A stretch of 45,116 nt of DNA from an uncultured Candidatus Saccharibacteria bacterium. Its GTDB lineage: Bacteria; Patescibacteriota; Minisyncoccia; Phycocordibacterales; JAACPR01. The notes beneath the pieces were generated by a model. The model was given only the letters and a program-made list of their open reading frames with translations. It had not been told where the DNA came from and searched no databases. The position numbers were made by a program, and so were the translations under genes. Below, piece after piece: positions 26,413 to 44,832 of the stretch (position 1 is its first letter; the number at the start of each line of letters is the position of its first letter). The DNA lies in assembly GCA_964534415.1 (NCBI GenBank), contig CAZHOL010000004.1:1-45116 (forward strand), given 5' to 3'.

Positions 26413-26447
26413 ATAAAAGCGAACAGGACATACGAAATGTCCTGTTC
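26413..26447 (-). terminator. Intrinsic terminator downstream of the GC-rich segment and upstream of the methyltransferase
   Basis: GAACAGGACAT-ttcgt-ATGTCCTGTTC, a perfect 11-bp stem, followed by GCTTTTAT on the minus strand. Confidence 0.7.
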
Positions 26448-26557
26448 AGGTCTAGTGAAAATATTATATCACCTCTACTACACACGGCAAACCAGCAACA
26501 ACCTTAACCATAATCCACCATAGTTAAACTTCCCGCAGTAACTTTAACTATAAAAAC

Positions 26558-26836
26558 CTAAAACCCCCTCTCCTCCCCCCCCTCCTTCATCACCACAAAC
26601 TCTATCCCATGCCGCGCGAGCACTGTTTCGGGAGCTTTGTGGACGGCACCGATGCGGTCGGGTTGCAACATTCCGTCGTGAATTGGGAAAGCTTTCTGTG
26701 GATGAAGAAGAATTGCGTAACGAATCGCGTCGGCAATGCGACACCATGGGCCAGAGACAGGCAAAGCCAGGATCGGACCCATAAGAAAAGCCCGGGGTGT
26801 CGTTCCCGGGCTCAGACGCGATGTCCAAAGATTCAA
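26558..26836 (-). pseudogene. Remnant of an MBL-fold metallo-hydrolase gene (about the C-terminal 75-90 aa only)
   Basis: ILALPVSGPW...AILLHPQKAFPIHDGML...GIEFVVMKEGGE resembles the C-terminal end of UlaG-type MBL-fold hydrolases. There is no HxHxDH region upstream. Visibly GC-rich. Confidence 0.5.
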
Positions 26837-26854
26837 TTTTTTCGCGAGCTCTGG

Positions 26855-27148
26855 CTATTGAGCCCGCGCCAAACGATTGACGTAGACGCTCACATTTAAT
26901 GCGTTGAACGCAGCGAGAGCATCTTTGACTGCATTGGTAGCTGGATCCAATCTCTCCTGCATATCCCAATTGATGTGAATGACCTGACAAGGTTCACGAG
27001 TTTCTGAATCGAGGCATACACTTTCAACAACCCCAACTGCGGCGCGAATCTGATTTTGCTCAATCAACCTCGCGATCTCATTCTGAACGGCTCCTGCAAT
27101 ATTCGAATCGAAACCATACAATTGTATATGGAAAGATGACGTTTTCAT
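26855..27148 (-). CDS. Hypothetical 97-aa protein (GC-rich cassette G)
   Basis: ATG at 27148 preceded by GAAGGG 5 nt upstream. Extended -10 promoter at 27202-27210. No family recognised. Confidence 0.45.
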   Translation of the reverse strand: MKTSSFHIQLYGFDSNIAGAVQNEIARLIEQNQIRAAVGVVESVCLDSETREPCQVIHINWDMQERLDPATNAVKDALAAFNALNVSVYVNRLARAQ

Positions 27149-27201
27149 TCTTACCCTTCTTGTTTGATGTGATGGTATGTGGTGAACAAAGCTAGTCACA
27201 G

Positions 27202-27228
27202 ACTATAGCAAAATCACTCGACAGTCAA
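27202..27228 (-). promoter_or_regulatory. Promoter of cassette G (TTGACT-15-TGcTATAGT)
   Basis: Minus strand reads TTGACTgtcgagtgatttTGcTATAGT. Confidence 0.45.
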
Positions 27229-27255
27229 TTAGCCTTCATTAACCAAAAAATTTTG

Positions 27256-27326
27256 TTGCCCGACAGGGACTCGAACCCCAATTAACGGTTCCAGAAACCG
27301 TCGTCCTACCTTTAGACGATCGGGCA
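27256..27326 (-). tRNA. tRNA-Gln (anticodon CTG)
   Basis: Manual cloverleaf: acceptor TGCCCGA/TCGGGCA, anticodon arm ACGGT-TTCTGGA-ACCGT, T arm GGGG-TTCGAGT-CCCT. No encoded CCA. Confidence 0.92.
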
Positions 27327-27346
27327 ATGTAAATCTGAATGCGGTT

Positions 27347-27375
27347 ACTTTATCACAGTTTATGCGGTTTGACAA
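27347..27375 (-). promoter_or_regulatory. tRNA-Gln promoter TTGTCA-17-TAAAGT
   Basis: Minus strand reads TTGTCAaaccgcataaactgtgaTAAAGT, 20 nt upstream of the tRNA 5' end. Confidence 0.55.
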
Positions 27376-27396
27376 AAAGATTTGGTGGAATATAAT
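27369..27396 (+). promoter_or_regulatory. Promoter TTGACA-16-TATAAT, back-to-back with the tRNA-Gln promoter (the -35 boxes overlap)
   Basis: TTGACAaaaagatttggtggaaTATAAT read directly. The palindrome-like TTTGACAAA serves both strands. Confidence 0.6.
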
Positions 27397-27402
27397 TGTG
27401 GT

Positions 27403-27476
27403 GTTGACTTTGGCATTCTGCGCAAAGCAGGACAGTCCGGCTGAGAAATCCCACCTAATGGTGGGATTTCGTTTTT
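27403..27476 (+). ncRNA. Candidate small RNA (~75 nt) with its own promoter and terminator
   Basis: Lies between the promoter at 27369-27396 and the terminator at 27445-27476. Internal hairpin UUCUGC-GCAAA-GCAGGA. No plus-strand ORF or gene follows. Confidence 0.35.
27445..27476 (+). terminator. Intrinsic terminator oriented for the plus strand; its T-run overlaps the ROK stop codon
   Basis: GAAATCCCACC-taat-GGTGGGATTTC, an 11-bp stem, followed by GTTTTT. Confidence 0.7.
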
Positions 27477-28284
27477 ATTTCCCCTTCATTTTTAAATACG
27501 CAAACCCTCCATAAATTCCGCCGATAGAACCAAGCTCCGCGATTTTCAAATCCGGCAAGGTTGGGTGAACTTTCATCAGAATCGCCAATTTTTTGGAGAT
27601 TCGTTCCGCGCTGAAATCTCGAGACATAGATCCGCCGAGCACTACCACCTCTGGCGACCAATGCAGAATTGAATTGTATACACCGACCGCAGTGTTGGTC
27701 TCGATCACTTCCCAAGCATCGGTTTGTGCCACCTTTTTTGGTGCCATTCCAAATTTTTTCTCTACCGCTGTGCCAGAACATAAATCTTCAAAAGTCGCAC
27801 CTGTCTCGTTATTCAAAATCTGATGTCCAGGTTCGAATCCAAATTTATTATGTTCAAATTCCCCGTTCACGATTTTCACACCACCAATACCAGTACTGAT
27901 TGTCATGTAGACAACATTTTTATAACCACGGCCTGCGCCAGCAACTGCTTCACCCAAACCAACAATCGCTGTATCGTTTTCGATGAGTACCTCGGTATTG
28001 AGTGCCCTCTCCAATTTTTCTTTCAACGGAATTTTTTCCCAGTCGCCGAGATGTGGAGATTTCACAATCATTGAGTGTTGTTCATTCAACACACCCGCAA
28101 TTCCGATCGCCACTGCACGAATTGGTCCACCATTTGCCATTCGCAAAATAGTTTCAATCAGTAATTGAATTCCGTCAGCCGGTCTTTTAGGAGTTGGTTC
28201 AATAATCGGTTCGTCAAATTTCACCAAATCGTCAGATCGAGCGATTCTCATTTGTGTTCCACCAATGTCACATGCAAAGTACAT
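27475..28284 (-). CDS. ROK family sugar kinase (glucokinase-like)
   Basis: CDIGGTQMRIA, ENDTAIVGLGEA, TISTGIGGV. 269 aa. Confidence 0.85.
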   Translation of the reverse strand: MYFACDIGGTQMRIARSDDLVKFDEPIIEPTPKRPADGIQLLIETILRMANGGPIRAVAIGIAGVLNEQHSMIVKSPHLGDWEKIPLKEKLERALNTEVLIENDTAIVGLGEAVAGAGRGYKNVVYMTISTGIGGVKIVNGEFEHNKFGFEPGHQILNNETGATFEDLCSGTAVEKKFGMAPKKVAQTDAWEVIETNTAVGVYNSILHWSPEVVVLGGSMSRDFSAERISKKLAILMKVHPTLPDLKIAELGSIGGIYGGFAYLKMKGK

Positions 28285-28296
28285 ATAAATATTATA

Positions 28297-29304
28297 TCAC
28301 TTTTTAAAAATCTCTTTTCCAAATTCCCAAAATTCTGGATGTTCATTTTTCTTCATCCAATACCACCACTCTGCTCCCCACAAATATTGTTTTTCAAATC
28401 GCGTATTTTCCGCATACTTCAAAATTTCTCCCATTTTTTTCAAATCCATTCTATCGAGCTGTGTTTCAATTGGAACCTCCGCGACTGATTTAATTAACCA
28501 AGGCTCGAGCGATAATTCAATGAGAAAAGTCTCCTTCTTGCCGAGCAACAACTGCATTAAATTTGCTTTGGCACGATAGAATGCAGATGGCAAAAGAGTT
28601 TTAAATCTTCCTAACTCCGGATTCCAGAAATATAAATAGACCGAAGTTCCAAACGCATCACCCCTCTTGTATGGACCAAACCATGTACCCAAATTTCCGC
28701 TGTCGGTTATCAACACTTTTCTTGAAGGATCCAATTCACGCACCAAAGCAATTTCTTTATCCAAAAATTCTACATCCAAATTTCCACAATGTTCATTCGC
28801 AAAAGCATTCAGGAATGGCTCATTTTCAACTTGCCAATATTTTATGGCATCATATTTTTTGTATCGATTCACCACAATCTCCAAATACTCGAGAACCTCC
28901 TCCTGCCATTGCGAGTCATTAAATCTCTCTGCCCATTCCGGAATGTGACATTCTGGCCATCTAGGCAATCTTCGCCCGACACCAAAAATGACTTCGGCCC
29001 CGCGCTTTTGGGCTTCAATAATTTGGAAGTCCATTTCCTCGAAATTATATTTATCTTTTTCTGGTTCAATAATTGGCCAGTGCGCAGATAGTCGCAAATG
29101 ACGTACCCCGAGATCATCTAGAATCGCGAGATAGACTTCTTTCCAATCCAAATTAATTTCGCGCGCGTACGGAACGTTGAATGACATGCCGTAAATTATT
29201 TTTTCTGGAACACTTTTTTTAGACAAAATCATCATAATCACAATCAAAAGAACAATCGCGCCGATGAAAACTTTCAAAAATGTTTTGAGAATTTTTTTAA
29301 TCAT
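28297..29304 (-). CDS. Membrane-anchored clan GH-A glycoside hydrolase (GH5/GH42-like)
   Basis: N-terminal TM anchor. RLSAHWPIIEP and YWQVENEPF (NEP acid/base motif). 335 aa. Confidence 0.65.
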   Translation of the reverse strand: MIKKILKTFLKVFIGAIVLLIVIMMILSKKSVPEKIIYGMSFNVPYAREINLDWKEVYLAILDDLGVRHLRLSAHWPIIEPEKDKYNFEEMDFQIIEAQKRGAEVIFGVGRRLPRWPECHIPEWAERFNDSQWQEEVLEYLEIVVNRYKKYDAIKYWQVENEPFLNAFANEHCGNLDVEFLDKEIALVRELDPSRKVLITDSGNLGTWFGPYKRGDAFGTSVYLYFWNPELGRFKTLLPSAFYRAKANLMQLLLGKKETFLIELSLEPWLIKSVAEVPIETQLDRMDLKKMGEILKYAENTRFEKQYLWGAEWWYWMKKNEHPEFWEFGKEIFKK

Positions 29305-29307
29305 GTT

Positions 29308-30246
29308 CTATACAAATACAAAAAACAATCCTGCCGCAATTATCGCCGCGGCGATTCCTTTGTGAACAATTTCCAATATTCCGCCATTTTCACCAAAATG
29401 TACATGCGTAATTCGACCGAACAACGCAGAGAAGATAATCAGGAACAAAAATTGCACGCCTCCAATCGCCTGAACTATTGCAACACTTCCCAACTGTACC
29501 GCCTTCAATGTCATGATGCTCGCCAATCCCGCCATCATTTTGATTCCCAAAACATACGCGCTGGCTTTGGGTTTCGATACAACTCTATTTTGAAGCTTTC
29601 TGAAGATTCGGCGACGATACATAGGCAGAGAGATCACCAATAGTGCCGCGACAACCAATCCAATTCGAGTATATAGAAATCCTGAATCAAAATTCGTCAA
29701 ATCAAAAATGTGTTTTGTTAAAGCATAATATGCCGCGAAAGCAAAACCGGACAACAACGTGTGAAGAATTAAAACTTTATCAAATTTGAGATGAGAAACT
29801 AAAACAGTACCGAGGGCTAGCAAGAAAAAACCAATCAGCTTGTCTTCTGAAAAACTATCGTGCAAAAATAGATACTCAAACAAAATTGTTCCAATCGCTG
29901 CGATTGACGTCACAACAGGCACAGCATCGGATGCGTCTGTTTTCGAAAAAGCTTCATACAAATTCACGAGTGCGATGAACATTAAAAACCCAGACAACAA
30001 ACACAGACCGATTAGCACAATGTCTGGCCTCACCAAATTATCAAACGAAGGTATCGCGATTCCACGAGGCAACTTGACCCAATCAAAAAAGAACACGCCG
30101 ACCGAAAGAGACGATAGAATTGAAACATAAAATGCATATGAGAACGGATGCAAAACCGTTTTCGAAGTCACAACGTATTTATCAAGGATCGCAACAACTG
30201 CGTTGATGATTTGTGCACCAATTGCGAGTAGTAACCAGATTTCCAT
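29308..30246 (-). CDS. DMT/EamA-like transporter
   Basis: 312 aa with about 10 hydrophobic helices arranged as two similar halves. Confidence 0.7.
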   Translation of the reverse strand: MEIWLLLAIGAQIINAVVAILDKYVVTSKTVLHPFSYAFYVSILSSLSVGVFFFDWVKLPRGIAIPSFDNLVRPDIVLIGLCLLSGFLMFIALVNLYEAFSKTDASDAVPVVTSIAAIGTILFEYLFLHDSFSEDKLIGFFLLALGTVLVSHLKFDKVLILHTLLSGFAFAAYYALTKHIFDLTNFDSGFLYTRIGLVVAALLVISLPMYRRRIFRKLQNRVVSKPKASAYVLGIKMMAGLASIMTLKAVQLGSVAIVQAIGGVQFLFLIIFSALFGRITHVHFGENGGILEIVHKGIAAAIIAAGLFFVFV

Positions 30247-30250
30247 TCCT

Positions 30251-31411
30251 CTATTCTATCGTTAAAGCGTTGCTTTCACAAATAGTTTTATATACATATG
30301 CAGATTCTCGTGGAATTCTTTTTAAAGTTTTCGGCTCGATGTGCACCATTCCAAATTCTTGAGTGTATCCGGCGGCCCATTCAAAATTGTCAGCGAATGA
30401 CCAATACATAAATCCACGCAAATCCAAGCCTTTTTGTAATGCATTATGTGCCCACAAGACGAGCCCCCTGATGTATTTGGGGCGCATGCTGTCAGCGCGA
30501 TCTGCGATGCCCGCCTCTGTGACGTACACAGGTTTTTTGTATCGCTTGAGGTCGATTAGGACGTGATAGAGGCCACTAGGGTCAAAATCCCAGCCGAAAT
30601 CATTTTTTGGAAGCCCCAGCGAGCGACCGAGATGTGAGTGGAAATAATAATTGAGACCGATGTGATCACATTTTTTGTGCACAGCATTCAAGAATCTGCG
30701 ATTCCAAAACCATCTCATGAATTTCGCTGCGACCCAGTTCCACGGCTTCCAATCCGAAGAAAAATGCATGTTGTTTTTAACGACGCCGAGATTGATTTGC
30801 GGAATTTCTTTTTTGATTTTTGAGTACGCAAGATTGTGCGAACGAATCAAATTTTTGATAACACGCAAAAATGCAAAATAATTTTTCTTGAAGGGTGGCC
30901 ACTGCCCGTTTCTATAACCGTTGCTCGAAAAAACCATCGGTTCGTTCATGGTGTCGAACATATCAGCGTATTCATGCAAATGTTTTGTGACAAATTGTGC
31001 GTAACGCGCGAAAATTTCTGACGACCGTCGATTTGCAAAACCTCCCATGTCAGAAAACCAAACAGGAATTGTGAAATGCCACAATGTCACCATCGATTTC
31101 AAACCTCGCTCGTGCATTGCGGTGAGGACTTTTTTGTAGTGTTCGATTTCGGCGAGATCGAATTTCCCTTCTTCAGGTTCTATGCGAGACCATTCAATAG
31201 AGATTCGGTGGGCGTTGTGCCCGAGCGATTTTGCTAAATCAAAATCCTCTGCATAGCGATTGTAGTGATCTGTCGATTCGCCAGCTGATGGGACTTTACC
31301 TAATCTGGATGCCTCTGCCCAATCATTGTTGTAAATTCCTCCCTCCACCTGATATGAAGCGCTGGCCGCGCCCCATAGAAAATTTTCTGGAAATTTTAGA
31401 ATTTGTTTCAT
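30251..31411 (-). CDS. GH1 beta-glucosidase
   Basis: FLWGAASASYQVEGG, TMNEPMVF (acid/base), YVTEAGIAD (nucleophile). Start set at MKQILKF, with TGtTATAAT 6 nt upstream. Confidence 0.87.
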   Translation of the reverse strand: MKQILKFPENFLWGAASASYQVEGGIYNNDWAEASRLGKVPSAGESTDHYNRYAEDFDLAKSLGHNAHRISIEWSRIEPEEGKFDLAEIEHYKKVLTAMHERGLKSMVTLWHFTIPVWFSDMGGFANRRSSEIFARYAQFVTKHLHEYADMFDTMNEPMVFSSNGYRNGQWPPFKKNYFAFLRVIKNLIRSHNLAYSKIKKEIPQINLGVVKNNMHFSSDWKPWNWVAAKFMRWFWNRRFLNAVHKKCDHIGLNYYFHSHLGRSLGLPKNDFGWDFDPSGLYHVLIDLKRYKKPVYVTEAGIADRADSMRPKYIRGLVLWAHNALQKGLDLRGFMYWSFADNFEWAAGYTQEFGMVHIEPKTLKRIPRESAYVYKTICESNALTIE

Positions 31412-31454
31412 GGGAATATTATAACAAAATAAAACTTGCACAAATTTGAGTAAT

Positions 31455-31480
31455 AAAAAAAGCTGCATTAGGGGCAGCTT
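31455..31480 (-). terminator. Intrinsic terminator of cassette A
   Basis: Minus strand AAGCTGC-ccctaat-GCAGCTT followed by TTTTTTT, 11 nt after the stop. Confidence 0.7.
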
Positions 31481-31490
31481 CCCATCGTTT

Positions 31491-31685
31491 TCATGCGGTT
31501 CGAGGACGGACAGCCACACAGTCTTGCGGTGGTCTTCCGTCGAACACGAATTCGCAAGGTTGTGTCTCTCCAGTTTTTTGTCTGGACTCGACTTGTTCCA
31601 GCACATCATCGAACCTGGTTCGTTCTCCCGGTCGTGCACAACGTGCGAACAGAGCGGGCCAACGTTTACCGTGCTCGTTAGTCAT
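31491..31685 (-). CDS. Hypothetical 64-aa protein (GC-rich cassette A)
   Basis: Strong SD GAGAGGAAGGTGA 7 nt upstream of the ATG, with its own promoter and terminator. No family recognised. Several frames are open, so a structured-RNA alternative is not excluded. Confidence 0.4.
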   Translation of the reverse strand: MTNEHGKRWPALFARCARPGERTRFDDVLEQVESRQKTGETQPCEFVFDGRPPQDCVAVRPRTA

Positions 31686-31730
31686 CTTGAATCACCTTCC
31701 TCTCGTGTTATAAGTTGTTCTCCTTGCAAA

Positions 31731-31759
31731 ACTTTACACAAAGCCCCATAATAATGCAA
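31731..31759 (-). promoter_or_regulatory. Promoter of cassette A, TTGCAT-17-TAAAGT
   Basis: Minus strand TTGCATtattatggggctttgtgTAAAGT, immediately after the pyrG stop. Confidence 0.5.
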
Positions 31760-31761
31760 CC

Positions 31762-33408: not shown

Positions 33409-33409
33409 G

Positions 33410-35027: not shown

Positions 35028-35903
35028 CTATTTTTTCATAGATTCTATGAAGATGTCAATTTCTCCAGCCAGTACACCATTAATATCTGAAGTTTCAACC
35101 TTGGTTCGATGATCTTTGACCAGTTTGTACGGATGCATTACGTATGAGCGGATTTGGCTTCCCCATTCTGCGCTGGTGGTTTTGGAGATAGACATACCAG
35201 ATTGATGGGCTTCCTCCTCTGATTTTCGCAATGCGAATAATTTTCCTTTCAAAATTTCCAAAGCTTTTTCTTTGTTTTGTGCCTGACTACGTTCGTTACT
35301 TACGAATGCCGAAAGTTTTGTGGCTTTGTGGATGACGCGAACTGCAGTTTCTCTTTTGTTGACGTTTTGTCCACCTGGGCCGGATGCCTTGGTGAACTCA
35401 ACTTCAATCTCATCTGGCGAAATTTTTATGGAGTCATCAGATTTATCGAATTGAGGGACAACTTCGACCATAGAGAATGAAGTTTGCCTCTTGGCCGCCG
35501 CATTGAAAGGAGAAATTCTCACCAGTCGGTGAACGCCAGATTCGTGTTTCAAATTTCCGTAGGCATTTTTGCCAACGATTTCAAATGTCGCCGTTCGATA
35601 TCCACCATTATCATTTTTGTTTTCATACAAAAAATTAATCAAATAGTTGTGCTTCTCTGCATATTTGGAATACATATTCAAAAGAATCGCCGACCAGTCC
35701 TCGGCATCGTCACCTCCAACTCCAGAAAAAATCGTCACGACAGCGTTACCTTTGTCGTATTTTCCTATACCCTCGAGTGAATCTTTCAAATCCTGCATTT
35801 CGCGAATTTTTGATTGTGCCAAATTTTTATCATTCCAAAAATCTGCCTGCATCATGGCGTTTTCGATTTCAGAGATTTTCTTTTGAATTTCGTCTTTATT
35901 CAT
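35028..35903 (-). CDS. prfB: Peptide chain release factor 2 (short form, single ORF, no frameshift site)
   Basis: SPF tripeptide (RISPFNAAAKRQTSF), GGQ (SGPGGQNVNK). Start set at MNKDEIQ; the tracked N-terminal extension is a translated tRNA gene. Confidence 0.9.
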   Translation of the reverse strand: MNKDEIQKKISEIENAMMQADFWNDKNLAQSKIREMQDLKDSLEGIGKYDKGNAVVTIFSGVGGDDAEDWSAILLNMYSKYAEKHNYLINFLYENKNDNGGYRTATFEIVGKNAYGNLKHESGVHRLVRISPFNAAAKRQTSFSMVEVVPQFDKSDDSIKISPDEIEVEFTKASGPGGQNVNKRETAVRVIHKATKLSAFVSNERSQAQNKEKALEILKGKLFALRKSEEEAHQSGMSISKTTSAEWGSQIRSYVMHPYKLVKDHRTKVETSDINGVLAGEIDIFIESMKK

Positions 35904-35905
35904 CT

Positions 35906-35981
35906 TGGAGCCAATAACCGGGATTGAACCGGTGACCTCGCCCTTACCAAGGACGTGCTCTACCAACTGAGCTATATTGGC
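35906..35981 (-). tRNA. tRNA-Thr (anticodon GGT), with encoded CCA
   Basis: Manual cloverleaf: acceptor GCCAATA/TATTGGC, anticodon arm CGTCC-TTGGTAA-GGGCG, T arm CACCGG-TTCAATC-CCGGT, 3' TCCA. Confidence 0.92.
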
Positions 35982-35993: not shown

Positions 35994-36002
35994 ATTCTAT
36001 CA
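35994..36002 (-). promoter_or_regulatory. Extended -10 promoter (TGaTAGAAT) of the tRNA-Thr-prfB-ftsEX-pyrG unit
   Basis: Minus strand cTGaTAGAATagtttgataatt, then the tRNA 5' end. Confidence 0.5.
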
Positions 36003-36016
36003 GGAAATGAGGAAGT

Positions 36017-36046
36017 AAAAAAGCGGTCCCTTTCGAGACCGCTTTT
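36017..36046 (-). terminator. Intrinsic terminator of cassette B (bidirectional shape)
   Basis: AGCGGTC-8 nt-GACCGCT flanked by an A-run and a T-run, 14 nt after the stop of the 72-aa ORF. Confidence 0.7.
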
Positions 36047-36059
36047 CTTGGGCCGTTGA

Positions 36060-36278
36060 TCAACCATGCTTCGTCAATTCAGCCCCTTTACCACCCCGCA
36101 GGCCGATTCGACCCGTGGAATCACGATTTCTCCTGACAATGTCATCCAAATCAGGATGGGGAACGACGGGCATTCCTGGCCCCTGGAAAATTTCCGCCCC
36201 GGTCGTGGGGTCGGTCCTGAGGAATTTCGGCCCGGCCACCGTGACACACCCGGATCTTTTACCACTCGGCTTTTTCAT
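36060..36278 (-). CDS. Hypothetical 72-aa Gly/Pro-rich protein (GC-rich cassette B)
   Basis: SD GAGAGGTGGAGGT 8 nt upstream of the ATG at 36278, with its own promoter and terminator. Four frames are open across the segment. No family recognised. Confidence 0.4.
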   Translation of the reverse strand: MKKPSGKRSGCVTVAGPKFLRTDPTTGAEIFQGPGMPVVPHPDLDDIVRRNRDSTGRIGLRGGKGAELTKHG

Positions 36279-36340
36279 CTGTACTAACCTCCACCTCTCG
36301 TCATCACACACCATGTGCAACATACGAAAGTCTGCAAAAT

Positions 36341-36368
36341 ACTTTACCACATAATTATATTAAATCAA
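36341..36368 (-). promoter_or_regulatory. Promoter of cassette B, TTGATT-16-TAAAGT
   Basis: Minus strand TTGATTtaatataattatgtggTAAAGT. Confidence 0.5.
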
Positions 36369-36385
36369 CTTTTTCCACAATTCAG

Positions 36386-36458
36386 AGCCACCTCGCAGAA
36401 TCGAACTGCGGACCTACGCGCTACGAGTGCGTTGCTCTGCCAACTGAGCTAAGGTGGC
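36386..36458 (-). tRNA. tRNA-Thr (anticodon CGT)
   Basis: Manual cloverleaf: acceptor GCCACCT/AGGTGGC, anticodon loop CTCGTAG, T arm CGCAG-TTCGATT-CTGCG. One A-C mismatch closes the anticodon stem. Confidence 0.9.
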
Positions 36459-37221: not shown

Positions 37222-37227
37222 TCTAAA

Positions 37228-37776: not shown

Positions 37777-37806
37777 AGTCCGAAAATTATATCACGTTTG
37801 GGAAAT

Positions 37807-37839
37807 AAAAAAGCCCCGGGTTGTCAGCCCGAAGCTTTT
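37807..37839 (-). terminator. Intrinsic terminator of cassette C (bidirectional shape)
   Basis: Minus strand GCTTCGGG-ctgacaa-CCCGGGGC followed by TTTTTT. Confidence 0.7.
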
Positions 37840-37855
37840 GCTGAGATGATGTCGG

Positions 37856-38227
37856 TCAGGACATCACCTCTTTGTTGGTGAGCATACCGTGGCGATGCTC
37901 GGGTGAACTCGTGGGTCGCAAATTGACCCCAGAGATCAAGCCGAGTCCTGCGACGAGGCAGATCACCCCAGTGGTGAGCCCGGCTCCCCAGACCCAACCC
38001 TGATATCCTTCAGGGACATAGCAACCCCCGACCAGAATCGTGGTCGCCAATGCGGATCCGAGTACGATAGTTGCTCCTCCAGCCTTGCTGCACAGGGCAA
38101 CAAGGGTCAGAAGCGCCAATCCCATAACGACGAACCCGCAGCTTCCGAGCTGCGTATCGATGGGCAACTTGCTCTCGACAAACAGGACGGCGGCCGCCCC
38201 AATGAACGCAACAATGACGTTTTTCAT
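37856..38227 (-). CDS. Small Gly/Ala-rich membrane protein, about 4 TM (GC-rich cassette C)
   Basis: 123 aa from MKNVIVAFIGAAAV. GGAAAGG 4 nt upstream of the ATG. Strong promoter at 38290-38318. Confidence 0.5.
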   Translation of the reverse strand: MKNVIVAFIGAAAVLFVESKLPIDTQLGSCGFVVMGLALLTLVALCSKAGGATIVLGSALATTILVGGCYVPEGYQGWVWGAGLTTGVICLVAGLGLISGVNLRPTSSPEHRHGMLTNKEVMS

Positions 38228-38289
38228 GACGCCTTTCCGAGGGTTTAACCCCTCTTTTTTCGTTTTTTGATAACTGAAGGAACCTTTGT

Positions 38290-38318
38290 ATATTATCACA
38301 CTTCAATCTGCCTGTCAA
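38290..38318 (-). promoter_or_regulatory. Promoter of cassette C, TTGACA-17-TAATAT
   Basis: Minus strand TTGACAggcagattgaagtgtgaTAATAT. Confidence 0.55.
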
Positions 38319-38369
38319 CCCTCAACATTTCCTAACATAATACTACCATCAAATCACCATTTGTCTAAA

Positions 38370-38403
38370 GAAAAAGGGCCCATATCAAAGCTATGCGGGC
38401 CCT
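38370..38403 (-). terminator. Intrinsic terminator of the 58-aa gene
   Basis: Minus strand AGGGCCC-15 nt-GGGCCCT followed by TTTTC, 6 nt after the stop. Confidence 0.6.
38392..38403. repeat. Left arm of a perfect 12-bp inverted repeat (TATGCGGGCCCT)
   Basis: It is the reverse complement of 38698-38709. Confidence 0.6.
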
Positions 38404-38409
38404 CTTGCG

Positions 38410-38586
38410 TTATTCTACTTTTTTATCCAATTCTTCTTTGACACTTTGATGGATTTCTTTGATTTCTGTGCCAAATCTCTCAAGTCTTTTTAAGATTTTG
38501 GATCTTCTCCTCTCTTCAATCTCGTGTAACAATTCCAATCTTGTTACCCGTCTTTCCAACTCTTCAATTCTCGACTCTATATCCAT
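38410..38586 (-). CDS. Hypothetical 58-aa coiled-coil protein (below the ORF-track length cut-off)
   Basis: AAGGAGG 5 nt upstream of the ATG. Translates to MDIESRIEELERRVTRLELLHEIEERRRSKILKRLERFGTEIKEIHQSVKEELDKKVE. A terminator follows. Confidence 0.5.
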   Translation of the reverse strand: MDIESRIEELERRVTRLELLHEIEERRRSKILKRLERFGTEIKEIHQSVKEELDKKVE

Positions 38587-38697
38587 TCTTCCTCCTTTTG
38601 TTGTTATTTTATTCTGGGTTCTCTCGCTACAATGTACTTCTGCAAAATCATCTGCCTCGACACTATCATTTTAGTGAAATTTGTAAAGCAATTAGAA

Positions 38698-38709
38698 AGG
38701 GCCCGCATA
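38698..38709. repeat. Right arm of a perfect 12-bp inverted repeat (AGGGCCCGCATA)
   Basis: It is the reverse complement of 38392-38403 and lies inside the hairpin at 38699-38727. Confidence 0.6.
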
Positions 38710-38745
38710 CGCAAGCGTAGCGAGCCCATTTCGAGTCATCAGGAT

Positions 38746-38955: not shown

Positions 38956-39086
38956 TTTCTGTATTTTCCTTTTGTTTGCCTGCCAACTATCAAACCTGAT
39001 AAATTCATACGACTACGAGCCGACTTCATTATCATTAAATAAATCAACAGGTCCTTTACGAATATAGCAAACTTGCACAAAAAAAT

Positions 39087-39299: not shown

Positions 39300-39306
39300 G
39301 TCAATA

Positions 39307-40125: not shown

Positions 40126-40156
40126 GAGATAATACTAACAAATCTTAGTAAGAATA

Positions 40157-41341
40157 TTAAATACAGACACTTTCAAATGACTCCTTTATTTCAAAAGACT
40201 GTACTATCTTGTCTTGTAATGTTATTTCTTCTTGTGTAACATCACAATCTTGCAATGTACTAATTACAACCAGTTTTTCATCTGCGGTTATAAAAATATA
40301 GTCACTTACAGAAGCACACATATCTCCGGTTGAGAATTTAGTATATTTGAAACCCTTGTTAAAAAAATCTACGTTGAAATTTGTCTTATTTATCTTGTCA
40401 GACTTACACATATCACCATAAAATTCATCAAACCAAATATTTTTTTCTGAAAGATACTTAAAATTACCAACATCCACACCGACATGAAAACGGTAATCTT
40501 CCGGCTTATATACTGATACGACCAAACTGTCGAGTTCAACAAATTTAATCTTGTCTGCAGAAACATTTTTATCAAACTCAAAAAGAGTTAGCTCATTAGG
40601 GTATCTAAAAGAAAAATTATAATAATCACTTTGATAAGTATTCCAATTAGACTGATCACTCTCTTTTATAAAAGTAAAGTTATCTTTGTTTATATGACTC
40701 AAACAATCATATTGCAGCTCTTTATTTGAAATGGTTTTGCATATACTAGGATTTTCCTGAGCTAAAATTTTATATACTTCGCTTTGACACGAATATTTTG
40801 GCCGATATTTTTCGTTCTCAACAATGTTGTCGCAAATAGAAATATCTTTATGTTTCAAAGCCAAGCCACCATAGCAACTTGCCCTCGTTCCATCAGAAGA
40901 ATCCGTTGGCAAAGTGCTACATTTTTGCAAATCATCTCTCTGTACTGCAACTTTTGAAATACAATTACTCATGAAAAATTCCCTTGACTGTTCTGAGCGA
41001 AAATCATTTTGAAGATTACAAAGTTCGTAATCAGCAAACTTAAGGGCTTCGTCTTCAATACAATTCGCAATAGAATACTCCCTGTAATATTCCCCATCAT
41101 TTTGCTCCTGACAGAAAGAGATGATTGTAGATGTAGAATTATTTTTATTTATAATATCTTGACTGGATGTAGTACTTTCGATAGAAACTTCAGAATCAAT
41201 TTTATCTTCTCCAAAAAACATAGAACCAATAATTAAAAGAATAGTAAGCACGAGAGAAAAAATTGCCATTTTTAATTTTCTCTCAATAAATTTGACGAGA
41301 AAATCATAAATCCTAAAAGTAATTTCGAATAGTCTTAGCAT
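40157..41341 (-). CDS. Cys-rich secreted or membrane-anchored protein, unknown function
   Basis: Signal anchor MAIFSLVLTILLIIGSMFFG (alternative start at 41269), followed by about 12 regularly spaced Cys and a beta-rich C-terminal domain. Confidence 0.55.
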   Translation of the reverse strand: MLRLFEITFRIYDFLVKFIERKLKMAIFSLVLTILLIIGSMFFGEDKIDSEVSIESTTSSQDIINKNNSTSTIISFCQEQNDGEYYREYSIANCIEDEALKFADYELCNLQNDFRSEQSREFFMSNCISKVAVQRDDLQKCSTLPTDSSDGTRASCYGGLALKHKDISICDNIVENEKYRPKYSCQSEVYKILAQENPSICKTISNKELQYDCLSHINKDNFTFIKESDQSNWNTYQSDYYNFSFRYPNELTLFEFDKNVSADKIKFVELDSLVVSVYKPEDYRFHVGVDVGNFKYLSEKNIWFDEFYGDMCKSDKINKTNFNVDFFNKGFKYTKFSTGDMCASVSDYIFITADEKLVVISTLQDCDVTQEEITLQDKIVQSFEIKESFESVCI

Positions 41342-41415
41342 TAAATAATTAATTATTGAGTAAATACAATATCAATAATACCACAACATATTTATTAAAA
41401 GGTTAAATAAACAAT

Positions 41416-41448
41416 AAAAAAGCCCTACCACAAAGTCGTGGTTAGAGC
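41416..41448 (-). terminator. Intrinsic terminator overlapping the stop of the 71-aa ORF
   Basis: Minus strand GCTCTAACCAC-gacttt-GTGGTAGGGC (one bulge) followed by TTTTTT. Confidence 0.6.
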
Positions 41449-41657
41449 TGGTAAACAAAAAGCTTCTCCTCGGCAATCTCAACTGTTGCCAAAAATATTC
41501 CATTCCGAACGTGCATCGATTCTGGAGAGCCAACCACTATTCCAGGAAATCCAGGAATGTCGATTCCTGCCTCTCGATTGTCGCGAATTGAAATCAGTGC
41601 TGTGATTTCAGCGGTTTGTATGGCCACTTCAAGATCTGATGCAATTTTGATTTTCAT
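41442..41657 (-). CDS. Hypothetical 71-aa protein
   Basis: AAGGAGA 8 nt upstream of the ATG at 41657 (MKIKIASDLEV), with a terminator at its end. No family recognised. Confidence 0.45.
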   Translation of the reverse strand: MKIKIASDLEVAIQTAEITALISIRDNREAGIDIPGFPGIVVGSPESMHVRNGIFLATVEIAEEKLFVYQL

Positions 41658-41707
41658 CGCCTCATCTCCTTGATGGTTGTATTGTTCAGGGCTTTTCATA
41701 TAATATA

Positions 41708-42427
41708 TTAACTATTAAGACTTGTCAAATGCTTGGCTGTTTCCCGCATTACCTTTCGCAAAGAATTTTCATCACTAGTGAAATGAATCGTCTGCCCATC
41801 TGGTAGTTGTTCGCTGAAAATATCTTCACTAGCCCCGGGTTGATGAATTGATGAGCCAAAATCAATTACCCAAGGATTTCCTTCTCTATCAACCATAATA
41901 TTACCGGCGTGTAGATCTCGATGATAATATCCATCATTATTAAAATCTTCAATAAATTTTTCCAATTTTCCAAAGAAGACATCCATATCAAAATTATCAG
42001 GCAAACTCGCCTCTCCATTAAAAATCTGTCTCAAGCTATTTCCATCAACCTTATCCATGAAGAAAAAGTCTAGGCCCGTTTCTGGATCTGATACGCTACT
42101 CAACACCCGAGGAATTTGGACACGATCTGCACGGCTCATTCTAGAAACCATACTCTGAAAATCGAACTCGTGATCAAATGAGTAGTTATTCTGAACAGTT
42201 CTATGCTCTGGCTTTTTTATAATTTTAATACAACAAGGGTGAATGTGCCCAACAGAAAAAACTTTTGCCAAATTTCCCTCACCAAGTTTTTCATGTTCGT
42301 TACTGTCATAATCCTCAGATAAAAGATTCTCTACCATTTTCAACATCAACTTATAATGATGCTCAACCATCTGCTCGAAATGAGCTTTTTTCTCTGTCCA
42401 ACCAGCTAAAAAATCAGAATTTTCCAT
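41708..42427 (-). CDS. Minimal eukaryotic-like protein kinase fold protein (ePK/RIO/Kdo-like)
   Basis: CCIKIIKK (beta-3 Lys), YHRDLHAGNIMVD (catalytic loop), VIDFGSS (DFG). 239 aa. Confidence 0.72.
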   Translation of the reverse strand: MENSDFLAGWTEKKAHFEQMVEHHYKLMLKMVENLLSEDYDSNEHEKLGEGNLAKVFSVGHIHPCCIKIIKKPEHRTVQNNYSFDHEFDFQSMVSRMSRADRVQIPRVLSSVSDPETGLDFFFMDKVDGNSLRQIFNGEASLPDNFDMDVFFGKLEKFIEDFNNDGYYHRDLHAGNIMVDREGNPWVIDFGSSIHQPGASEDIFSEQLPDGQTIHFTSDENSLRKVMRETAKHLTSLNS

Positions 42428-42442
42428 ATAAGAATTATATCA

Positions 42443-42697
42443 TTAATATAATTGCGCGTGGCTACCTATATTCATCAAAACAATGCCTCCCTCAACTTCC
42501 TCATAATGAACTCTAATGTCGCTGGTGACGTTAAAACTTCGGGTTCCAATAAATTTACCAGTTAGTGCGTGATTATTTAAAGAATAATGAAATTGATCGT
42601 TTTGAAAAATCATAAATTTGAGTTTAAATTTATTTTGTATTGCTTTTGGCTGCTTATCAAAAGACTTGATAAATTTTTTGTGAAATCTGATTTGCAT
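42443..42697 (-). CDS. RelE/YafQ-family type II toxin (mRNA interferase)
   Basis: 84 aa. NNHALTGKFIGTRSFNVTSDIRVHYEE...MNIGSHAQLY matches the YafQ/RelE C-terminal pattern. Starts 4 nt after the antitoxin stop. Confidence 0.85.
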   Translation of the reverse strand: MQIRFHKKFIKSFDKQPKAIQNKFKLKFMIFQNDQFHYSLNNHALTGKFIGTRSFNVTSDIRVHYEEVEGGIVLMNIGSHAQLY

Positions 42698-42700
42698 TAG

Positions 42701-42973
42701 CTATATTTTTAAAGCCTTAAACAAATCGTCCGCATTGTTATATATTTTTGAAAGATTTTTTCCCTTCTTTATATCATTCTTTATCTGCAAAAATTCTTTC
42801 TTTGTTTTTTCATTAAACTCTGGAGCAACGCTCAAAACCACTCGACGCTCGTCGACAAATTTCTTGAGTGTGGCATTTATGACAACGCTCAACGATAGTC
42901 CGAGCTCGTTTGCCAATGCAGATGCACGATCTTTAATATCCTTATCTAATTTAACACTAGTTGTTGTTTTCAT
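42701..42973 (-). CDS. RelB/DinJ-family antitoxin (ribbon-helix-helix)
   Basis: MKTTTSVKLDKDIKDRASALANELGLSLSVVINATLKKFV is an RHH of the DinJ type. The tracked longer ORF runs through the promoter and operator. Confidence 0.85.
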   Translation of the reverse strand: MKTTTSVKLDKDIKDRASALANELGLSLSVVINATLKKFVDERRVVLSVAPEFNEKTKKEFLQIKNDIKKGKNLSKIYNNADDLFKALKI

Positions 42974-42997
42974 ATTACAAAGTATATACTTTGTAAT
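42974..42997. promoter_or_regulatory. Perfect 24-bp palindrome (ATTACAAAGTAT|ATACTTTGTAAT), putative antitoxin operator
   Basis: Read directly. It abuts the dinJ-like ATG and covers the -10 box. Confidence 0.65.
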
Positions 42998-43008
42998 ACT
43001 TATGTCAA
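42981..43008 (-). promoter_or_regulatory. TA-operon promoter TTGACA-16-TATACT, 7 nt upstream of the antitoxin ATG
   Basis: Minus strand TTGACAtaagtattacaaagtaTATACTttgtaatATG. Confidence 0.6.
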
Positions 43009-43160
43009 TCCTTGTACCCTTCAGCCTGCGCATTATACATCTCGGCATAAAGCCCACCCAATTTCAGAAGCTCTTCGTGTGTTCCGATTTCCTTGATATT
43101 TTGACCGTCAATCACCGCTATCTTGTCGGCGTTGCGAACCGTGGCGAATCTATGCGAAAT
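43005..43160 (-). pseudogene. Remnant of an ABC exporter ATPase gene (last ~51 codons only)
   Basis: Minus strand translates to ISHRFATVRNADKIAVIDGQNIKEIGTHEELLKLGGLYAEMYNAQAEGYKD-stop, the typical C-terminal tail of MsbA-type ABC exporters. An in-frame TAA lies directly upstream and there is no Walker or signature region. Confidence 0.7.
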
Positions 43161-43173
43161 TTATTTAACATAT

Positions 43174-43208
43174 AAAAAGAAAAGCGCCCCTGAACGTTCA
43201 GGCGGCGC
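43174..43208 (-). terminator. Intrinsic terminator of cassette D
   Basis: Minus strand GCGCCGCCTGAAC/GTTCAGGGGCGC hairpin followed by TTTTCTTTT. Confidence 0.7.
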
Positions 43209-43232
43209 GTCAATAAACCGAGTAAATTAATA

Positions 43233-43763
43233 TCATGCAGATATGCTCGACCATGTCCCAGTGAGCAATGCCTGCCGATGTGCTTCGTCCATTTGGAATC
43301 GGAAGCTGAAATAATTGCTCACCCCACCCTCCAGAGATGTGAGATCCACGCTGCCGTCGCACTCAAATTTATTGGTCACTCGAATCAATTCGGTGTGATT
43401 TTCTGTTGTCAGTTCGCAACACACAATCCCGCACCTCGTCGCCGACTGAATGAATCGCGGCGTGAACGCTGGGGTTGTACTCTCAGCCCTTCCGATGATT
43501 GCTCCGATGCTCAAACTCGACAGAATCCTCGCCGACTCGTCGCAAGCACTTCCTAGACCGACTCCAGGATCGAGAATCAGAATTCGCCCTGGCCGTTCCA
43601 CCTGGACGAGACATCGCCCATCAGTTGGCGCAAAGGCCTCATTGATTCGCTCTACGAAACCTTCGCGCTCCATTATTCCGGTCGTCATCTGCCCGGGGAC
43701 ATAAACAACAGGTCCCATGACACACAATATTTCACCCGTGCAGGGTTTTTCTGGCTTCATCAT
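43233..43763 (-). CDS. Hypothetical 176-aa protein (GC-rich cassette D)
   Basis: AAAGGAGAG 7 nt upstream of ATGATG at 43763. A long open frame in GC-rich DNA, with a terminator. No family recognised. Confidence 0.5.
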   Translation of the reverse strand: MMKPEKPCTGEILCVMGPVVYVPGQMTTGIMEREGFVERINEAFAPTDGRCLVQVERPGRILILDPGVGLGSACDESARILSSLSIGAIIGRAESTTPAFTPRFIQSATRCGIVCCELTTENHTELIRVTNKFECDGSVDLTSLEGGVSNYFSFRFQMDEAHRQALLTGTWSSISA

Positions 43764-43921
43764 GACACACTCTCCTTTCAAAGAGCGACACACATCGTAA
43801 TTGATGCATGTTCTGATTGAAGAATAGTATAGATTTAATTTTAAAGCAATGAGGTCACCTATGTGCGAATAATTTTATTTTGCTTCTTTACTTCATACAA
43901 AACACATCGTTATATCAAAAC

Positions 43922-43947
43922 AAAAAACACCCTCACGAAGAGAGTGT
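43922..43947 (-). terminator. Intrinsic terminator after tRNA-Asp (bidirectional shape)
   Basis: Minus strand ACACTCTC-ttcgt-GAGGGTGT (one G-U pair) followed by TTTTTT, 11 nt after the tRNA 3' end. Confidence 0.65.
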
Positions 43948-43957
43948 CTTTTTTATG

Positions 43958-44031
43958 CGCGAGTGATGGGACTTGAACCCACGACCTTCCGCGTGACAGG
44001 CGGACGCTCTAACCAGCTGAGCTACACCCGC
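43958..44031 (-). tRNA. tRNA-Asp (anticodon GTC)
   Basis: Manual cloverleaf: acceptor GCGGGTG/CACTCGC, anticodon arm TCCGC-CTGTCAC-GCGGA, T arm GTGGG-TTCAAGT-CCCAT. No encoded CCA. Confidence 0.92.
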
Positions 44032-44094
44032 ATAATTTTACTTCAATTATGCGATGCTTAATAATGTATCAGATTTTGAAGTTTTGGGCAATAG

Positions 44095-44122
44095 AAAAAA
44101 GCGTAGCCGGGGGCGCTACGCT
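44095..44122 (-). terminator. Intrinsic terminator of cassette E (contains the ORF stop codon)
   Basis: Minus strand AGCGTAGC-7 nt-GCTACGCT followed by TTTTTT. Confidence 0.7.
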
Positions 44123-44319
44123 TTTGGGACACGCTTGCGGGAAACCCCGCTGTCATGTCCCCAGTTCTTTTGGCTCCAACCTCGCCACGGGGGCCGAGTT
44201 GAAACTGAAGAAGAACTCGCTGCAGCCAAACGCGCTCGACACTCCTTGCACGTTCCTCCGCAGTCACCATCACATCCCCGCTCCGAGCGGGTAAGAATCT
44301 CGATGCCATTGTGTTGCAT
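44116..44319 (-). CDS. Hypothetical 67-aa Cys-rich protein (GC-rich cassette E)
   Basis: AAAGGAGAA 6 nt upstream of the ATG. Strong promoter at 44342-44369. Motif CDGDCGGTCKEC. Several frames are open, so coding status is uncertain. Confidence 0.35.
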   Translation of the reverse strand: MQHNGIEILTRSERGCDGDCGGTCKECRARLAAASSSSVSTRPPWRGWSQKNWGHDSGVSRKRVPKA

Positions 44320-44341
44320 TGGCTTCTCCTTTCTTATCTGA

Positions 44342-44369
44342 ATAATACCATATCTAGAGATATTGTCAA
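44342..44369 (-). promoter_or_regulatory. Promoter of cassette E, TTGACA-16-TATTAT
   Basis: Minus strand TTGACAatatctctagatatggTATTAT, directly after the cassette F stop. The spacer holds the ATATCT/AGATAT inverted repeat. Confidence 0.6.
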
Positions 44370-44741
44370 CTACTTTCTCGTTTCCCTAAAATCAGGCAAC
44401 CTTTCATAAGGAAATGGGAACTCGTCCTCGTCATAATTCATCTCCCACCATCCGTATGGTTTCGCAGGCAACTCGATTGAATTTCCTTCCTTATCCAAAC
44501 TACATGTTGGTGTCATTACCAATTTGCCGCTCGCGTCCACTTCGAAAGCACTGACTGCGCCACAACACCAGTCGCGCGACGGGTCACCAATATTGGCTAG
44601 TTCACGTGCCGTGCGTACGATTTGAATTGGTCTACCCAAATTTTCACTTCCCACTCTCTGAAGCAGAGCATCACAAGGGTGAAAAGAAAAAAGCTCTCTC
44701 AAGAAATTTAGCTGTCTTGGTCTCTTTAATCTCTTCTTCAT
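44370..44741 (-). CDS. Hypothetical 123-aa protein (GC-rich cassette F)
   Basis: GTGGAGGT 6 nt upstream of the ATG at 44741 (MKKRLKRPRQ). Promoter at 44799-44827. No family recognised. Confidence 0.5.
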   Translation of the reverse strand: MKKRLKRPRQLNFLRELFSFHPCDALLQRVGSENLGRPIQIVRTARELANIGDPSRDWCCGAVSAFEVDASGKLVMTPTCSLDKEGNSIELPAKPYGWWEMNYDEDEFPFPYERLPDFRETRK

Positions 44742-44798
44742 GACATACCTCCACTTCTTGGTTAAAAAGTTAAAGGATCGGTCGTGACTCTGATAATC

Positions 44799-44827
44799 AT
44801 TATACCCACCCCCTCCCAAAACCGCAA
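44799..44827 (-). promoter_or_regulatory. Promoter of cassette F, TTGCGG-17-TATAAT
   Basis: Minus strand TTGCGGttttgggagggggtgggTATAAT, starting 6 nt after the tRNA-Met 3' end. Confidence 0.55.
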
Positions 44828-44832
44828 TGTTG

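Follow-up and report, generated by a model that had tools for sequence, protein, structure and literature searches.

Probable small GC-rich transcription units in mostly tRNA-adjacent gaps of a Paceibacteria chromosome segment

The phage genes known as morons, a concept of Juhala and Hendrix, are independent units with a promoter and a terminator of their own (Cumby, Davidson and Maxwell 2012, PMC3594210); they can be told as additions to an otherwise conserved gene order, with a GC content unlike that of their neighbours, and their products are often small membrane proteins or proteins of unknown function (PMC3594210). We report on a set of units of similar design in a window of 45,116 nucleotides, by which we mean the whole of the stretch analysed (contig CAZHOL010000004.1, positions 1 to 45,116), an AT-rich segment (~39% GC) of the chromosome of a member of the Paceibacteria, within the candidate phyla radiation (CPR). 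A preliminary description of this DNA had singled out seven GC-rich small-gene cassettes, labelled A to G, and had taken them for foreign or mobile elements inserted at tRNA-proximal hotspots.

At least four of these units are genuine protein genes that evolve several-fold faster than the core genes, and the units are not demonstrably mobile. Together with an eighth unit, orf58, they are, in the reading that we favour and hold to be probably correct, moron-like autonomous accessory micro-genes which occupy high-turnover, mostly tRNA-adjacent gaps and which are partly foreign in origin. CPR (Patescibacteria) genomes are small and mostly metagenomic, and their flexible gene content and the rules of its expression are poorly described.

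The window was compared with a relative species, here called R, which is ~83% identical in nucleotide sequence in core genes (loci L001-L012 and L096-L098), and with a lineage more distant than R, called S, which is represented by the 1.5-kb contigs L092 and L093 only. Two further contigs, L094 and L095, come from the window's own population, and the locus L013, the RF2 of which is 73% identical, served as the outgroup. In the protein searches F, B and G were compared with 5.8 billion proteins, and D, by a full HMMER search, with 1.8 billion representatives.

Composition and signals of the units

In 100-bp windows the GC content reaches 0.50-0.65 at 26600-27100, 31500-31700, 36000-36300 and 37800-38200, against ~0.30-0.44 elsewhere, with further peaks of 0.50-0.65 at 43200-43800, 44100-44300 and 44500-44600, and all seven islands of the preliminary description, on the minus strand, are borne out by this profile. 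The compositional deviation, for which a sliding-window analysis had been proposed as the check, is equally clear in the open reading frames (ORFs), the GC content of which is 0.45-0.58 in the seven units and 0.31-0.44 in 12 resident genes, ranges that do not overlap. The units, with their Shine-Dalgarno (SD) motifs and other signals, and the tRNA genes beside them are as follows.

26781-27236, minus strand: unit G; ORF 26855-27148, 97 aa; promoter with -35 box TTGACT at 27228-27223 and extended -10 box TGcTATAGT at 27207-27202; leader of ~50 nt with a weak AAGG; terminator 26788-26813
31455-31760, minus strand: unit A; ORF 31491-31685, 64 aa; -35 box TTGCAT at 31759-31754, -10 box TAAAGT at 31736-31731; SD GAGAGGAAGGTGA; terminator 31457-31483
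36015-36368, minus strand: unit B, between two tRNA-Thr genes; ORF 36060-36278, 72 aa; -35 box TTGATT at 36368-36363, -10 box TAAAGT at 36346-36341; SD GGAGGT; terminator ~36017-36042
37805-38318, minus strand: unit C; ORF 37856-38227, 123 aa, four transmembrane (TM) segments; promoter TTGACA-17-TAATAT at 38318-38290; leader with a hairpin and a weak SD; terminator 37809-37839
38366-38700, minus strand: orf58 unit; AT-rich ORF 38410-38586, a 58-aa coiled coil; SD AAGGAGG; its own hairpin terminator
43175-43849, minus strand: unit D; ORF 43233-43763, 176 aa, degenerate LeuD-like; -35 box TTGCTT at 43849-43844, -10 box TATTCT at 43826-43821; SD AAAGGAGAG; terminator ~43175-43209
44095-44369, minus strand: unit E; ORF 44116-44319, 67 aa, with Cx3Cx3Cx2C; promoter TTGACA-16-TATTAT at 44369-44342; SD AAAGGAG; terminator 44097-44125
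44370-44827, minus strand: unit F; ORF 44370-44741, 123 aa; -35 box TTGCGG at 44827-44822, 5 nt after tRNA-Met, -10 box TATAAT at 44804-44799; SD GGAGGT; no terminator of its own, the stop codon abutting the E promoter
27255-27326: tRNA-Gln, beside unit G
35906-35981 and 36385-36458: tRNA-Thr(GGU) and tRNA-Thr(CGU), on either side of unit B
43957-44031: tRNA-Asp, between units D and E
44832-44906: tRNA-Met, beside unit F

Promoter-like boxes are present in all seven of the GC-rich units, as had been described. A consensus scan recovers those of E and C, and the remainder were read from the sequence: TTGACT-15-TATAGT with a TG extension in G, TTGCAT-17-TAAAGT in A, TTGATT-16-TAAAGT in B, TTGCTT-17-TATTCT in D and TTGCGG-17-TATAAT in F. 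Terminators, which had been claimed for every unit but F, are found by the scan in G, A, C and E and can be read in the sequence of B and D. The AGGAGG-type SD attributed to all seven is strong in A, B, D, E and F, where motifs of 6-7 nt stand 5-8 nt 5' of the ATG, but G and C have a weak AAGG only. These predicted signals support each unit except F as an autonomous promoter-to-terminator module; F lacks a terminator and runs into the promoter of E. Five cassettes do lie next to tRNA genes (Gln, the two Thr, Asp and Met), as had been stated.

Three to four reading frames are open over each of A, B, C and E, again as first noted. By an arithmetic estimate, an ORF of 64-72 codons stays open by chance in ~6-8% of cases at 55% GC, the value for 64 codons being ~8%, and A, B and E therefore required comparative evidence.

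Coding constraint and turnover

Between the window and R the ratio of non-synonymous to synonymous substitution (dN/dS) is 0.02-0.08 in core genes, at a dS of 0.8-1.6, and the products of the units evolve 2-60 times faster than core proteins. Conservation of frame in homologous loci had been proposed as a check, and B, E, F and G are kept there as coding frames; by their pattern of substitution, these four are protein-coding genes under purifying selection. Differences from R are distributed over the three codon positions as 12/7/37 in B (dN/dS 0.11) and as 13/15/40 in G (dN/dS 0.16), the homologue of G, P0022, being 75% identical in amino acid sequence. Those between E and its homologue in S (L092) are distributed as 15/13/27 (dN/dS 0.24), with all indels in frame and all four cysteines kept; the Cx3Cx3Cx2C motif which these form suggests that E is probably a metal binder. 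The sole homologue of F, P0017 of S, has equal length and 72% identity, and here the differences are 27/20/64, with pN 0.17 against pS 0.78 (the uncorrected proportions), dS being saturated and dN/dS not estimable.

Homologues of F, B and G are restricted to one narrow clade among the proteins searched. No product has a match in Pfam, NCBIfam, PADLOC or PHROGs beyond a remote LeuD match of D, so that the earlier statement that none belongs to a recognised family holds for six products and has to be amended for the seventh. No relatives of C, G or F were met with in the IMG/VR viral contigs. The AlphaFold2 (AF2) model of G (pLDDT 77) is a beta-alpha-beta-beta-alpha ferredoxin-like domain, which finds generic ferredoxin-like matches only in Foldseek (TM-score ~0.5); the model of F (pLDDT 36) is unusable. 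A metagenome scan for the junction of tRNA-Met and the F promoter returned only a contig identical to the window.

Units A and C have conserved ends and divergent interiors. In A the promoter, the SD (13/13 nt), the start, the last 11 codons, the stop and the terminator are conserved in R and the interior is near random, with an ORF of 64 aa in the window and of 62 aa in R. For C, R shares with the window the promoter, the opening ATGAAAA, the final codons (VMS-stop) and the terminator, in which a compensatory pair occurs, while the interior is unalignable and a direct comparison of the protein with its positional counterpart in R is not significant; in both products, of 123 aa in the window and 128 aa in R, four hydrophobic segments nevertheless occupy corresponding positions, and a hydrophilic tail closes with VMS. 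Regulatory flanks of the units are 68-90% identical to those of relatives, whereas synonymous sites are only ~35-50% identical, and the terminators of B and C carry compensatory stem changes between species, through which that of B is preserved in R. The SD of A (GAGGAAGG, 31690-31700) is complementary to a conserved 3' coding segment (CCGTCCTC, 31491-31536), a pairing that is retained in R with one G-U and by which the SD might be sequestered, in so far as two sequences only can tell. Set against type I toxin-antitoxin systems, the toxins of which are hydrophobic and shorter than ~60 aa and are accompanied by a sequestered SD and an overlapping antisense RNA, C is a protein of 123 aa with 4 TM segments and the product of A is not hydrophobic, the SD of A being pairable in two species.

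Three further features, all within or directly beside units, bear on where the units come from and how they change.

26558-26782, minus strand: GC-rich remnant directly past the G terminator, probably the C-terminal ~74 codons of a metallo-beta-lactamase (MBL)-fold hydrolase
43007-43160, minus strand: remnant of an ATP-binding cassette (ABC) transporter gene, the 3' end of ~50 codons, past the D terminator
36192-36249, minus strand: mosaic or hypervariable patch in the ORF of B, L094 against the window

The only distant homologues of D are two LeuD-type proteins. D is 31% identical over ~120 residues to LeuD, the small subunit of 3-isopropylmalate dehydratase (an Aconitase_C swivel domain), and matches the NCBIfam LeuD model at E 2e-6, but with 27 bits against a cutoff of 167; it has no Pfam Aconitase_C match, its motif of the GCGSSREHA type is degenerate (GLGSACDESA) and no LeuC gene is adjacent to it, whereas the genes of its homologues directly follow leuC in their genomes. 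A bona fide LeuD was rejected on the score below the family threshold, the degenerate motif and the missing LeuC neighbour, and from the same comparisons D is best described as a stranded, degenerate and solitary LeuD. R has only the C-terminal ~60 codons of D, out of frame with the SD-led ATG, over which the differences fall as 18/16/30 (dN/dS 0.18). Two gene remnants had been reported beside the units. That of the ABC gene stands, being 84% identical in nucleotide sequence to the 3' end of a 612-aa gene that is intact in R, a comparison by which the gene has been lost from the window and retained in R; the other has a weak match in the PDB (residues 161-221 of the MBL-fold hydrolase TM_1162, E 0.036) and none in Pfam. 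D may plausibly have come from foreign DNA, and so, possibly, may the weakly MBL-like piece beside G.

R has homologous units in slots A, B, C and D, and its F/E slot has a like architecture with other ORFs: the tRNA-Met, promoter and leader are the same and are followed by a different ORF of 61 aa, a second promoter, a different Cys-rich ORF of 63 aa and a terminator. S, more distant than R, retains F and E themselves. The homologous units in the slots of R, with F and E in S, imply that most units are not recent insertions. Beyond the 63-aa ORF, R has a LAGLIDADG ORF that ends at the 5' end of tRNA-Asp, and this tRNA gene is split after the anticodon by an insertion of ~213 nt, a probable group I intron (L008 5033-5988), which matches Rfam Intron_gpI with 40 bits and E 7e-7, below gathering; the tRNA-Asp of the window is uninterrupted.

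The other slots have changed in different ways. G, which follows tRNA-Gln in the window, has its homologue in R ~4.7 kb farther downstream, where MacAB, Fic and a 285-aa ORF precede it and a PemK-like gene follows, and the block of homology begins a few nt before the -35 box and stops with the final base of the terminator, between unrelated flanks; the proposed search for the same cassette at other loci in relatives thus finds G in a different context. The slot after tRNA-Gln in R (L001 16770-17290) contains what, read by eye, seems to be a CYTH-like ORF with an in-frame stop, probably a pseudogene. B is absent from the outgroup locus, where the two tRNA-Thr genes stand 82 bp apart. Within the window's own population, the 1277 nt of L094 differ from the window at 22 places, a 3-nt in-frame indel included, all of them within the 58 nt of the B patch, and are identical to it outside, a distribution more indicative of recombination in patches than of point mutation. 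Searches of each slot by blastn-short found no template-like copy of this patch in the window. A diversity-generating retroelement, considered for the patch with its 3-nt indel and for the hypervariable interiors, was rejected: in the 45 kb examined there is no second copy of a slot, and no reverse transcriptase among the ORFs scanned. The eighth unit, orf58, was not among the earlier seven cassettes and is absent from R, relative to which it is a clean insertion of ~315 bp after the terminator stem of orf69, flanked by an imperfect direct repeat of ~15 nt (ATGCGGGCCCTTTCT / ATATGGGCCCTTTTTCT).

The units have no repeats or end motifs in common, attC-like sites and tRNA-end duplications are lacking, and the blastn-short searches of the slots against the window gave chance 12-14-mers only. 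The window ORFs scanned, all of them outside 12.4-17.3 kb, include no integrase, transposase or reverse transcriptase, and no unit has a copy at a second locus within any genome. The claim of foreign or mobile cassettes at tRNA hotspots is therefore upheld only in part: the variable slots, the other context of G, the absence of B, the insertion of orf58 and the derivation of D from leuD speak for it, and the missing repeats, attC-like sites, integrase and reverse transcriptase, with the age of most units, against it.

The genes around the units are of an ordinary cellular kind. The window encodes RNase J, HisRS, GluRS, a ROK kinase, GH1, EamA, PyrG, FtsEX, RF2, a pseudouridine synthase, YceI and MurI, and the neighbours of the units are pyrG, ftsEX, prfB, murI, tRNA genes and the like. 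Downstream of tRNA-Gln lies a variable accessory and defence neighbourhood, which in the window (19986-26485) includes MazF, NUDIX, ASCH, a GmrSD-HNH endonuclease, Fic and an EcoRI-type methylase, and for which R (L096 4072-12291) has MacAB, Fic, a PemK-like gene, RhuM, MazG and a Schlafen-like helicase instead.

Two predicted modes of translation initiation

The preliminary description had contrasted the SD-led units with leaderless resident genes, and this contrast is confirmed. A TATAAT-like box starts 15 to 11 nt before the ATG in 11 of the 26 resident genes examined, none of the 11 with an SD (ROK, GH1, FtsX, orf70, orf239, NUDIX, MurI, EamA, RluB, YceI and orf85), and a weak SD-like motif occurs in only two of the 26 ORFs; the third bearer of an SD, orf58 (AAGGAGG), is counted as the eighth cassette. 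A box so close to an ATG without an SD is, at the level of sequence, the signature of leaderless mRNAs. Examples between 26000 and 45116 are the ATGs at 28284, 31411, 34333, 39299 and 42427, with the box ~12 nt upstream. One genome would thus combine two initiation designs, leaderless housekeeping genes and SD-led, GC-rich, fast-evolving micro-genes.

The prfB gene was also compared across 79 related species (loci L013-L091), and has TANNNT at -15 to -10 in 41 of them and an SD-like motif in five, the listed examples of which fall within the 3' end of the tRNA. In the window (35901-35981) the start codon of prfB (35903) lies 2-3 nt past the 3' end of tRNA-Thr(GGU) (35906), an abutment that recurs in many relatives (among L012-L091). 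Processing of the tRNA would free a leaderless prfB mRNA, in a manner resembling tRNA punctuation. This prfB is one short ORF of 291 aa, in which nothing indicates the programmed frameshift usual for the gene.

Across the loci of 78 species, SD motifs are ~3-fold enriched at the canonical spacing, and SD-led ORFs are GC-richer than those of leaderless type (+2.7% vs -0.7%, p 2e-5), though against a composition control the same difference has a p of 0.07 only. A survey of GC islands in 80 related loci found them to be common, many lying within ordinary genes; only selected tRNA-adjacent cases were inspected, and these show GC-rich ORFs in such gaps of other Paceibacteria as well. The 3' end of the 16S rRNA of one related Paceibacteria species (L019 1-602) is GGAUUAUUUCAAAA, in which the anti-SD CCUCC is missing. 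A published study reports the anti-SD motif in only 48% of Parcubacteria (PMC9297842), with which this is consistent. Should the lineage of the window lack it as well, the units pose a concrete puzzle for translation initiation.

Origin of the units and relation to known systems

We propose that eight independent small transcription units, each with a sigma-70-type promoter, a leader (with an SD in most), a small ORF and an intrinsic terminator, fill a few permissive gaps between conserved genes. Insertion, deletion and recombination would change what these gaps contain, and selection would preserve the expression signals of each unit. F, which has no terminator, may be read through into E, and F, B and G may borrow tRNA promoters, from which read-through would add to their expression because no terminator intervenes after the upstream tRNA gene. 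The higher GC content, the SD-led design and the gene fragments would reflect the acquisition of foreign DNA, kept or remade as self-sufficient units because the genes of the host initiate leaderless. Predicted as products are a protein with 4 TM segments (C), one rich in Cys that probably binds metal (E), one with a ferredoxin fold (G), and small basic proteins, all of which, we would guess, serve strain-specific interactions (with a host, phage or competitor) or immunity.

Several points weigh against this proposal. Cassettes are found at 4 of 8 tRNA-adjacent junctions and at 2 of 16 others (hypergeometric p ~0.07), and the association, suggestive only, may simply reflect the fact that tRNA genes mark operon boundaries and offer promoters on which F, B and G can draw; likewise, the changed context of G could stem from insertions around a stationary gene. 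The GC content at third codon positions (GC3) is high in both orthologues (C 0.67/0.67, B 0.58/0.51, E 0.54/0.62 and G 0.45/0.55, window and relative), and since it persists at ~1 substitution per synonymous site, un-ameliorated foreign DNA does not explain it fully; a possibly better fit is selection acting on codons or mRNA, or else GC-biased gene conversion where loci recombine. A shows little constraint at the protein level (dN/dS ~0.5 on a gappy alignment) and C is too diverged for dN/dS (pN 0.51, pS 0.76, saturated). Of the products searched (D, F, B and G, with C against viral contigs only) none has a close homologue outside the clade and no donor was identified, so that the foreign origin rests on composition, design and two fragments. 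If the lineage of the window also lacks the anti-SD, as seen in the relative L019, the 'SD' motifs cannot act canonically, although the conservation of GGAGG motifs across species, e.g. 13/13 nt in A, argues that they are functional. Transcription, translation and roles are all predicted here.

Other explanations have to be set beside it. The shortest islands, A, B and E, had been suggested to encode structured non-coding RNAs, their ORFs being by-products of GC-richness, and fold z-scores of -2.4 (A), -2.6 (B) and -4.6 (E), for which the terminators are partly responsible, the three to four open frames and the pairing of the SD of A with a conserved 3' coding segment in both species would agree with this. 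Rfam 15, however, gave only tRNA matches in the window, both at gathering and at E <= 10, and for B and E the bias to third-position substitutions, the in-frame indels and the dN/dS of 0.11 and 0.24 refute the suggestion, so that a structured RNA is a candidate for A only, where the interior is unconserved and two sequences only could be compared for pairing; as an account of all three islands it is very improbable. Much the same slight weight is due to active mobility, in which a dedicated recombinase would move the units as integron-like, MITE-like or tRNA-targeting cassettes. The two contexts of G with boundaries near the module ends, the ~15-nt imperfect repeat around orf58, the tRNA genes that adjoin the slots and the LAGLIDADG ORF and group I intron in the F/E-tRNA-Asp slot of R are what such movement might leave; but the units are without common repeats, end motifs or tRNA-end duplications, the scanned ORFs (12.4-17.3 kb excluded) are without integrase, transposase or reverse transcriptase, and the units lack second-locus copies within a genome and are mostly syntenic in relatives.

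Two readings that do without acquired functional genes, or without acquisition, fare somewhat better and are still unlikely. The islands might be decaying debris of foreign DNA with functionless ORFs, open only through the scarcity of stops in GC-rich sequence: the MBL and ABC remnants, the degenerate and solitary D, truncated and out of frame in R, the interiors of A and C diverged to randomness and the ~8% chance of an open 64-codon frame would all suit this, whereas the purifying selection on B, E, F and G, the conservation of promoters, SDs and terminators far beyond the neutral level, with compensatory changes in the terminators, and the start, stop and length kept by A and C across saturated divergence (in C with the 4-TM layout) would not. 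We judge it about equally doubtful that the units are native, highly expressed small genes whose GC-richness and SD mark a separate expression regime, through codon or mRNA selection or GC-biased gene conversion at recombination-prone sites, rather than a foreign origin. Near-consensus promoters, conserved SDs and terminators, a GC3 that is high in both lineages despite a dS of ~1, the mosaic patch of B as a sign of recombination at such loci and a GC-richer SD-led minority across the clade favour it; against it, D and the MBL piece can be recognised as parts of genes that do not belong to this metabolism, close relatives lack some units or have others in their place, and the clade-wide GC effect is small (+2.7%) and, against the composition control, has a p of 0.07. 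There is a similarly small chance that the loci are fixed 'expression sockets', in which promoter, leader, GGAGG and terminator are conserved while the coding interior is repeatedly replaced or patch-converted by recombination, as might be seen in F/E against the other pair in R, in C and A against their counterparts there and in the 58-nt patch of B. Such sockets would amount to a slot-based system for diversifying small proteins in a leaderless-initiating Parcubacteria lineage and, were the anti-SD absent too, to a conserved GGAGG read by something other than the 16S tail.

Under the moron-like reading that we prefer, the interest of these micro-genes is that they are real, in the sense of being under selection, and concentrated in a few high-turnover gaps, and that gene callers overlook them or misplace their starts, A and B being absent from the protein collection. 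If they mediate strain-specific interactions of an episymbiont, they are candidate host-range or immunity factors.

Of the known systems, integron cassettes are generally promoterless. The units resemble them as small single-gene modules that stand in tandem (F, then E) and vary between strains, but differ in having promoters and, except in F, terminators of their own, with neither attC-like repeats nor intI among the scanned ORFs; integron cassettes were rejected as an identity on the lack of repeats common to the units and of an integrase. With the tRNA-proximal genomic islets and ORFan accessory genes of bacterial flexible-genome hot spots the units have in common their lineage restriction, deviating composition, position beside tRNA genes, variable presence between relatives and accompanying remnants. 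A tRNA-integrating genomic island was rejected, there being no integrase among the scanned ORFs and no direct repeat of a tRNA 3' end. Each unit is a single micro-gene, 0.3-0.7 kb in size, that deviates towards GC in an AT-rich host and has an SD-led design where the host's genes are leaderless. Like phage morons, the units are recognisable as insertions into a conserved gene order and often encode small proteins that are membrane-bound or of unknown kind; they differ from morons in standing among the housekeeping genes of a cellular CPR chromosome and not in a phage or prophage, in the lack of IMG/VR relatives (C, G and F) and of PHROGs matches (all products), and in that several are syntenic across species rather than sporadic. 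What they also share with morons is the combination of an own promoter and terminator in G, A, B, C, D and E (F having the promoter only) with a GC content, 0.45-0.58 against 0.31-0.44 in the resident genes, that sets them apart from their neighbours.

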